A stretch of 63,499 nucleotides of DNA, from assembly GCA_028817035.1 (NCBI GenBank), contig JAPPQH010000005.1:1-63499 (forward strand), written 5' to 3'. The translations under genes were made by a program, and so were the position numbers. Position 1 is the stretch's first letter, and each line of letters starts with the position of its first letter. The DNA is from Candidatus Campbellbacteria bacterium (GTDB taxonomy: Bacteria > Patescibacteriota > Minisyncoccia > Phycocordibacterales > JABAAK01). The notes under the pieces are model-generated. The model was not told the origin of the DNA and searched no databases. It saw only the letters and a list, made by a program, of their open reading frames with translations. This document shows, one piece after another, positions 17,475-17,559 of this stretch.

Positions 17475-17559
17475 AGGAGCTGATAGGAATCGAACCTATG
17501 CCTCCAATAACCAGCTTGTAGCTAGGCATTGTCGCTCTGGCCTACTAAGCTACAGCCCC
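17475..17559 (-). tRNA. Atypical tRNA-Ala-like gene (85 nt) with a 19-nt insert in place of the 7-nt anticodon loop
   Basis: Canonical GGGGCTG/CAGCTCC acceptor with G3-U70, a normal D arm (GCTT-AGTAGGCCA-GAGC), T arm ATAGG-TTCGATT-CCTAT and a 4-nt variable loop. ACAAT...ATTGG encloses GCCTAGCTACAAGCTGGTT. Confidence 0.6.

Follow-up and report, generated by a model that had tools for sequence, protein, structure and literature searches.

A tRNA-Ala-like gene with a closed helix in place of its anticodon loop in Candidatus Campbellbacteria: a candidate non-decoding tRNA mimic

What can a transfer RNA (tRNA) gene do when its body is intact but a helix stands where the anticodon loop should be? 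The question is raised by an 85-nucleotide (nt) tRNA-like gene on the minus strand of contig JAPPQH010000005.1 (assembly GCA_028817035.1, Candidatus Campbellbacteria bacterium), of which we analyzed positions 1 to 63,499, here referred to as “the window.” An earlier note, made from the sequence alone, had described a tRNA-Ala-like body with 19 nt in place of the 7-nt anticodon loop, and that description held: the gene matches the Rfam tRNA model from end to end (48.4 bits over model positions 1 to 71, gathering score 29), and the loop alone is replaced. We tentatively favor the reading that this is a real, probably expressed, non-decoding alanine-type tRNA mimic.

The body is a class I cloverleaf. 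From 17559 to 17475 it reads GGGGCUG-UA-GCUU-AGUAGGCCA-GAGC-G-ACAAU-GCCUAGCUACAAGCUGGUU-AUUGG-AGGC-AUAGG-UUCGAUU-CCUAU-CAGCUCC-U, and the same interval is recovered by ARAGORN; its Rfam score is close to that of the weakest ordinary tRNA of the window (50.1 bits). The acceptor (7/7), D (4/4), and T (5/5) stems are fully paired, and 20 of the 21 stem pairs are intact overall, with A27.G43 as the sole flaw. As the earlier note had stated, the gene carries the G3.U70 pair (G at 17557, U at 17478), a D arm with GG, a 4-nt variable loop (AGGC), and a regular T arm, all of which can be read from the sequence and from the Rfam alignment, where the acceptor-T branch is of the 7/5 type. The tertiary nucleotides are all kept (U8, A14, G15:C48, G18G19, A21, G26.A44, U54U55C56, and A58). 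The retained body thus appears to hold everything needed for the tRNA L-shape and for handling as a tRNA, including the Levitt pair. CCA is not encoded, as is also the case for the other tRNA genes of the window. The discriminator is U73, whereas the normal tRNA-Ala(UGC) that the earlier note had correctly placed nearby has A73; the bodies of the two genes differ as well, the latter having the acceptor strand GGGCCCG and the T stem GCAGG.

The anticodon arm is where the gene departs from a tRNA. The Rfam alignment places 19 nt where the model has 7, and this insert is not random, in that it continues the anticodon stem as a helix. The 29-nt arm folds as.(((((.((((((...)))))).)))))., with 11 standard pairs, including two G.U, and one C.U mismatch, which gives a rod of 12 to 13 positions with an ACA tip; a drawing with the 7-nt tip CUACAAG is equally legitimate, and the earlier note had allowed for both. 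The folding energy is -10.3 kcal/mol (z score -2.92), which is matched by 1 of 200 dinucleotide shuffles, versus -5.5 kcal/mol for the antisense strand. Three of the rod's 12 positions are not Watson-Crick (two G.U, no A.C, and one C.U), and the G.U pairs exist only in the tRNA sense. The insert occurs once in the window, even with three mismatches allowed, and we therefore rejected the idea that it is a repeated palindromic element.

With a closed helix in place of the loop, no anticodon can sit at its usual spacing from the 3′ end. Ribosome geometry is such that an anticodon arm six pairs too long cannot bridge the decoding center and the peptidyl-transferase center, and we infer that the element could not work as an ordinary decoding tRNA. 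This agrees with the earlier suggestion that the molecule would be unable to decode normally. ARAGORN's two calls contradict one another. Run without introns, it arrives at “His(atg)” at the cost of a distorted D arm, the insert then counting as a variable arm; when introns are allowed, the call becomes “Gln(ctg),” with C33 and an intron of 10 nt that interrupts the anticodon.

Decoding might be restored if a short intervening sequence were removed from the RNA, an explanation that we consider quite unlikely. ARAGORN's intron mode does yield a model, in which the 10-nt excision leaves CC-CUG-GU, but this non-canonical form has C33 and a split anticodon. The earlier note had held that a 12-nt intron model fails, and enumeration of all 12-nt excisions in the 5-bp-stem drawing bears this out, leaving C33 every time and never U33. 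One variant goes beyond the earlier note (as do the structured upstream RNA described below and the promoter-like site within its hairpin). If the stem is drawn with seven positions, including G.U and C.U, the 5′ strand of the rod reads C-U-AGC, which is a Y-U-NGC context, and removal of the 8 nt UACAAGCU gives CUAGCGG, or CU-AGC-GG, with an alanine AGC anticodon. Some insert-bearing genes from the survey described below likewise resemble tRNA-Ala with an insert after nucleotide 36, for example, L045, which resembles tRNA-Ala(UGC) and reads AUUGC, 17 further nt, and AG. We give the AGC reading little weight because it needs a non-canonical 7-position stem with C.U and G.U, plus G37 and G38, together with a splicing activity unknown in bacteria; to our knowledge, there is no short-intron splicing pathway in bacteria. 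Nor does the arm resemble known intron types. Bulge-helix-bulge introns have two 3-nt bulges with a 4-bp helix between them, usually at 37/38, and such an intron is ruled out here because the helix of the arm runs through without any bulge, interrupted only by one C.U mismatch. Group I introns are self-splicing, have a P1-P9 core, and span ∼200 nt or more; one of these is likewise ruled out, given an insert only 12 nt over the normal loop (8 to 12 nt being too short) and the lack of an Rfam group I match. No RtcB or endonuclease gene was found by Pfam scans of 29 proteins of the window, and our literature search found no description of tRNA introns in Patescibacteria or of a 12-pair closed anticodon arm in a bacterial tRNA gene.

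The insert could also be an artifact, created when sequencing or assembly introduced a chimeric or palindromic mis-join into an ordinary tRNA gene. The source data are a metagenome, and 25 of the 104 GTDB pattern matches described below are clearly artifacts (20 with masked N, 5 with internal duplications). For the window itself, we consider an artifact highly improbable. The independent Logan assembly of source run X1 contains a 14.6-kb contig that is identical to the window over the 1.7 kb from 16700 to 18400, at a word depth of 14.4 and with no variants, and we rejected an assembly slip as the origin of the insert because this contig matches exactly. Moreover, the arms of the rod are not a perfect DNA palindrome, and no tRNA segment is duplicated in the window.

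The tRNA-like gene belongs to a cluster of RNA genes on the minus strand, with tRNA-Ala(UGC), tRNA-Leu(UAG), and an upstream structured region (Table 1). It has its own intrinsic-terminator-like hairpin, as the earlier note had reported; the hairpin begins 8 nt past the discriminator and was missed by a consensus terminator scan because its 11-nt loop exceeds the scan's 8 nt. The structured region upstream has a minimum free energy of -80.1 kcal/mol (z -4.93) on the minus strand and -65.7 kcal/mol (z -3.35) on the plus strand. It matches no Rfam family, even at E≤10, and neither the rest of the window nor any fetched locus contains a copy of it. The only promoter-like site upstream of the element is doubtful and may be spurious, because both of its hexamers fall within the arms of hairpin 3 of this structure; if it is spurious, the upstream RNA and the tRNA-like gene may form one transcript. 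The terminator and the one-strand cluster, together with the full-length model match and an insert that is not an assembly slip, argue for the mimic that we favor.

Table 1 Features of the tRNA-like gene and of the surrounding RNA-gene cluster in the window
Feature	Position	Strand	Description
tRNA-like gene	17475..17559	minus	85 nt; G1 = 17559, U73 = 17475
Acceptor stem, 3′ strand CAGCUCC	17476..17482	minus	pairs with GGGGCUG at 17553-17559; all 7 pairs in Rfam alignment
T arm AUAGG-UUCGAUU-CCUAU	17483..17499	minus	Rfam alignment
Extended anticodon arm	17504..17532	minus	29 nt; base stem ACAAU/AUUGG plus 19-nt insert at 17509-17527
D arm GCUU-AGUAGGCCA-GAGC	17534..17550	minus	with G18G19; Rfam alignment
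Intrinsic-terminator-like hairpin	17467-17424	minus	13-nt arms, 11-nt loop, then UAUUUUU; inverted repeat I21, 92% complementary
Structured RNA-like region	17566..17738	minus	∼170 nt; three hairpins enclosed by the closing helix ACGCGAGG/CCUCGCGU; stops 7 nt short of G1
Sigma-70-like site TTGAGC-16-TATGAT	17624-17597	minus	∼37 nt upstream of G1; 9/12 matches; possibly spurious
tRNA-Leu(UAG)	17311-17394	minus	
tRNA-Ala(UGC), normal	16834-16908	minus	

Do similar genes exist elsewhere? We scanned one genome for each of 185,579 species (GTDB), the JGI metagenomes, and the IMG/VR viral contigs with the pattern GGGGNNNTAGCTN{45,70}GGTTCRANTCCNNNNNNNTCC, which keeps the alanine-type acceptor, U8-U12, the T loop, and U70-C72 and demands 45 to 70 nt between them, versus ∼39 to 43 nt in an ordinary tRNA. 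Insert-bearing alanine-acceptor tRNA-like genes exist in all three collections, most of them sporadic and some in conserved families. GTDB gave 104 loci, with 53 clean cloverleaves, 3 cases with an alanine anticodon loop in register, and 26 single rods of at least 10 pairs. The corresponding counts were at least 115, at least 74, at least 20, and at least 39 for the metagenomes, and 60, 46, 3, and 11 for IMG/VR. The in-register cases from metagenomes are mostly eukaryote-like tRNA-Ala(AGC) genes with short introns after nucleotide 38.

Pairing within these helices depends on the strand. When the five outermost pairs are left out, G.U pairs in the inserted helices number 33 in the sense versus 12 in the antisense reading for GTDB, 9 versus 2 for the viral contigs, and 51 versus 16 for the metagenomes (among the matches listed); over whole arms, the counts are 122 versus 39. 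Palindromes that arise and decay at the DNA level should show symmetry between the strands, and G.U pairs are ∼3 times commoner in the sense reading, which indicates that the class of helices is shaped at the RNA level. The bias thus points to constraint at the RNA level across the class.

Two of the conserved families have a consistent genomic setting. In nine species of Chryseobacterium (L005, L010, L013, L017, L019, L021, L044, L077, and L085; for example, L005:3764-3861, minus strand), genes of 97 to 101 nt with a branched “anticodon” region follow a same-strand RtcB-family ligase gene at a distance of ∼100 nt, with genes for a WYL/WCX regulator and a HopJ protein as further neighbors. An 82-nt phage form, found on six contigs (L223, L226, L228, L256, L266, and L267; for example, L228:683-764), has a 15-nt loop containing UUGCG; a terminase small-subunit gene precedes it by ∼137 nt, and a conserved gene of 513 aa follows after 38 nt. 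Another insert-bearing form adjoins a phage gene for a single-stranded-DNA-binding protein.

Other features of the collected loci were observed in passing. In a family of 80 to 84 nt from Flavobacteriia and IMG/VR, AAGGGUG..CACA..AAACAGUGCCUAAGGC takes the place of the anticodon arm and is conserved in many contigs (L023, L034, L054, L086, L221, L225, L254, L257, L258, L261, L263, L264, L268, and L269). Some rods start with Y32-U33 and a non-alanine triplet (UCU, UCC, UUC, GAA, or GUU) whose pairing with the insert's 3′ strand locks the would-be anticodon in the helix (L113, L066, L078, L083, L015, L179, L126/L168, L104, and L119). A gene for an IS1595-family (ISXO2-like) transposase lies within 3 kb of L051, L072, L073, L094, L117, and L157, which belong to different phyla, and L015 and L016 are near an IS1-like gene. 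Two other Patescibacteria tRNA-like genes follow strongly structured, unannotated RNA (L045:6830-7096, z -5.3; L061:1500-1863, z -8.3), for which we found no sequence similarity to the structured region of the window; L061 is also near a LAGLIDADG-type open reading frame (ORF), and a second odd tRNA, called with a 4-nt anticodon, comes after L061.

Several results weigh against a functional mimic. The window's own sequence fits the search pattern, yet it does not appear among the matches listed for the three collections, and neither does any related body or arm (104 from GTDB, at least 115 from metagenomes, and 60 from IMG/VR; at least 279 loci). Because the pattern demanded an alanine-type acceptor with G3.U70, the survey is silent on whether alanine identity matters. 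The Patescibacteria cases are sporadic (L024, L033, L042, L045, L052, L061, L064, L099, and L101), and their inserts are unrelated even though the 5′ halves of their tRNA-Ala bodies are nearly the same (L033 versus L101) or alike (L042 versus L045), a pattern that fits better with repeated accidents than with a conserved function. In the window, U73 for A73 and A27.G43 look like relaxed constraint, to judge from the sequence. Fem/MurM, MprF, RtcB, Ro60, SmpB, and alanyl-tRNA synthetase (AlaRS) are all absent among 29 scanned proteins encoded in these 63 kb (Pfam), and no public RNA run contains the locus. Finally, the upstream structure is not exceptional: among the window's long intergenic regions (≥100 nt, scored with mononucleotide shuffles), 12 of 21 reach z≤-5, which makes structured intergenic DNA a general trait of this genome.

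For this member of the Patescibacteria (CPR), we found no close sequenced relative. The YchF protein of the window is at most 56% identical to anything among 5.8 billion proteins; its best named matches are from Vogel-, Kaiser-, and Zambryskibacteria/Paceibacterota, and its nearest relatives (53 to 56% identical) share no gene order with the window. The pilin-like neighbor protein is not on record. Public runs place the window in a sponge metagenome, and in the sponge and host-associated runs found via 16S rRNA, relatives are represented only by short contigs of low coverage that take in tRNA-Ala and tRNA-Leu, and one of these stops at ∼17419, some 56 nt short of the tRNA-like gene.

The gene may instead be a young pseudogene, that is, a dispensable second tRNA-Ala-type gene whose anticodon loop acquired, or was replaced by, helix-forming sequence and which is now decaying, its transcript, if any, having no role. 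We regard this account as the serious alternative, less probable than the mimic but with a substantial chance of being right. It would explain the lost anticodon, U73, A27.G43, and the failure of every scan to find a homologue, and an intact tRNA-Ala(UGC) that could read all four GCN codons lies 640 nt away. It also suits the rarity of clean GTDB cases (only 53, mostly species-specific) and the unrelated inserts in related Patescibacteria bodies. However, the rest of the gene is undecayed in both its stem pairs and its tertiary nucleotides, and if the rod had started as a perfect palindrome, its 3 of 12 non-Watson-Crick positions would predict ∼3 to 4 broken stem pairs elsewhere (a rough estimate; P about 0.1). 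The G.U pairs of the rod are strand specific and the terminator is kept, in a compact genome of which ∼89% is covered by ORFs of at least 70 aa. If the gene is nonetheless a pseudogene, it offers only a snapshot of a redundant tRNA gene dying, together with a warning for annotation, given the His and Gln labels from gene finders.

How might a non-decoding mimic be made and used? Transcription would run to the hairpin-U terminator, either alone or together with the upstream structured RNA. RNase P would then cut at G1, the 3′ trailer would be trimmed, and CCA would be added, as must occur for the other tRNAs of this genome. AlaRS might charge the product via G1-G4 and G3.U70. The earlier note had considered alanylation plausible, a proposal weakened by the discriminator; because of the U at position 73, charging would probably be weaker than that of tRNA-Ala. 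The mimic would then act outside decoding. Our first preference is a role as a tRNA-shaped decoy or cofactor, like the tRNA-like RNAs tied to RNA-repair and phage genes; the second is a processing handle by which the upstream RNA would acquire its 3′ end, in the manner of mascRNA and MALAT1; and the third is an alanine donor held out of translation. For the last of these, the earlier note had suggested aminoacyl donation to cell-wall or lipid pathways, for which the window offers no support, neither Fem/MurM nor MprF being found among its 29 scanned proteins; the non-proteinogenic tRNAs known to serve such pathways are otherwise normal, anticodon loop included, and go with a Fem/MurM- or MprF-type transferase in the genome.

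Known systems help to place the element. It shares with bacterial elongator tRNA-Ala the 7/5 cloverleaf, G1-G4 and G3.U70, canonical D and T loops, and the 4-nt variable loop; unlike that tRNA, it has no 7-nt anticodon loop, no U33 or in-register NGC anticodon, U73 rather than A73, and A27.G43. As the earlier note had stated, its acceptor stem has the same sequence as that of Escherichia coli transfer-messenger RNA (tmRNA), and tmRNA also has G3.U70 alanine identity and acts without an anticodon. In contrast to the tRNA-like gene, tmRNA lacks a D stem, measures ∼350 nt, and includes pseudoknots as well as a reading frame for its tag. The earlier suggestion of a tmRNA-like role found no backing: ARAGORN -m and the Rfam tmRNA models detect no tmRNA at the element, three-frame translation shows no tag-like reading frame upstream of it, and SmpB is missing among the 29 scanned proteins of the window. 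We rejected tmRNA identity on the first three of these grounds.

The RtcB-linked tRNA mimics YrlA (Y RNA-like A) and b7a-tRNA (bioRxiv 10.1101/312249) are alike in principle, being tRNA-shaped non-coding RNAs that do not decode and whose anticodon end either gives way to a helix or is prolonged into one. YrlA, however, is a permuted mimic with a closed acceptor stem, no free CCA end, and a Ro60-binding helix, and its gene lies beside those for Ro60 (rsr) and RtcB, whereas the tRNA-like gene has free 5′ and 3′ acceptor ends, and neither TROVE/Ro60 nor RtcB was found among the 29 scanned proteins of the window. Likewise, b7a-tRNA adjoins Band-7 and RtcB genes, while the tRNA-like gene, in these 63 kb of genome, adjoins genes for a pilin-like protein and an RNase_T-family exonuclease. 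The Chryseobacterium 97-nt family fits the RtcB-linked group better than the window element does. The eukaryotic mascRNA and MEN-beta elements (RF01684) likewise combine a tRNA-like fold with the lack of a usable anticodon loop; they lie directly 3′ of a longer non-coding RNA, whose 3′ end would arise when RNase P releases them. A comparable arrangement in the window would require the structured region that ends 7 nt before G1 to be co-transcribed. Strong structure is, however, common among the intergenic regions of the window, RF01684 gives no match to the element, and the doubtful promoter-like site stands between the two RNAs.

Among natural genes that depart from the cloverleaf, tRNA-Sec, tRNA-Pyl, and the allo-tRNAs have anticodon stems of at most 6 bp and keep the 7-nt loop, and a regulatory role or a link to mobile elements has been proposed for some allo-tRNA-like sequences (PMC7609411). 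Allo-tRNAs have an 8/4 or 9/3 acceptor-T branch and a long variable arm, unlike the 7/5, class I body of the tRNA-like gene with its 4-nt variable loop and 12- to 13-position arm.

Should the mimic be both transcribed and charged, it would represent a bacterial RNA with free ends that keeps synthetase identity and gives up decoding. It would then mark a step between tRNA and mimics of the tmRNA or YrlA type, in a lineage of very small genomes where spare genes are rare. The recurrence of alanine-acceptor tRNA-like genes in phage genomes and beside RtcB suggests that they may take part in RNA repair or phage-host conflict, functions that have received little study. A bolder proposal, which we think unlikely, is that the element is a functional stable RNA, perhaps acting with the 170-nt four-way-junction RNA 7 nt upstream, and belongs to a wider, undescribed class of chargeable non-decoding tRNA mimics in Patescibacteria, phages, and RNA-repair operons, in which alanine acceptor identity is kept and the anticodon arm is free to serve as a binding or sensing module.

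The protein-coding neighbors are a type IV pilin-like protein, an RNase_T-family exonuclease, UvrC/UvrA, YchF, and a flavodoxin-like protein, and we found no convincing phage context among them. For an 81-aa ORF within the cluster, between tRNA-Ala(UGC) and tRNA-Leu(UAG), no homologue was found. The tRNA-Ala(UGC) of the cluster has a U31.U39 mismatch.

Strongly folding intergenic regions of the window include 8980-9151(+), 11434-11613(-), 14206-14385(-), 23839-23966(-), 35308-35487(-), 45395-45574(-), and 56390-56569(-), and many such regions contain long palindromes. A ∼50-nt repeat, AUUAUCGCUCGUGGCUYCGCCACUCGCUUGRUUUUGCUCGCAGG, occurs at ∼14150-14198 (-) and 56298-56346 (+), the copies being 93% identical over 54 nt; the 56-kb copy lies beside tRNA-Ser, and a weaker copy within 48005-48270 lies beside tRNA-Leu(GAG).

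The rRNA operon is broken up: a short bacterial 16S rRNA gene lies at 11707-13163 (-), and there is no 23S rRNA gene within the window. The usual spacer tRNAs, Ile(GAU) at 8785-8859 (+) and the Ala(UGC) of the cluster, sit 3 to 4 kb from the 16S rRNA gene, with tRNA-Ile on the other strand. Nearby, 13363-14085 (+) encodes a 240-aa cysteine-rich protein that gave only weak RING-like zinc-finger matches under the Pfam cutoff and that consists in part of four ∼30-aa tandem repeats of the form C-x-x-C...W-R-E-(H/Y)-C-A-H-G-(L/F)-C-K-x-C-Y-N-K.

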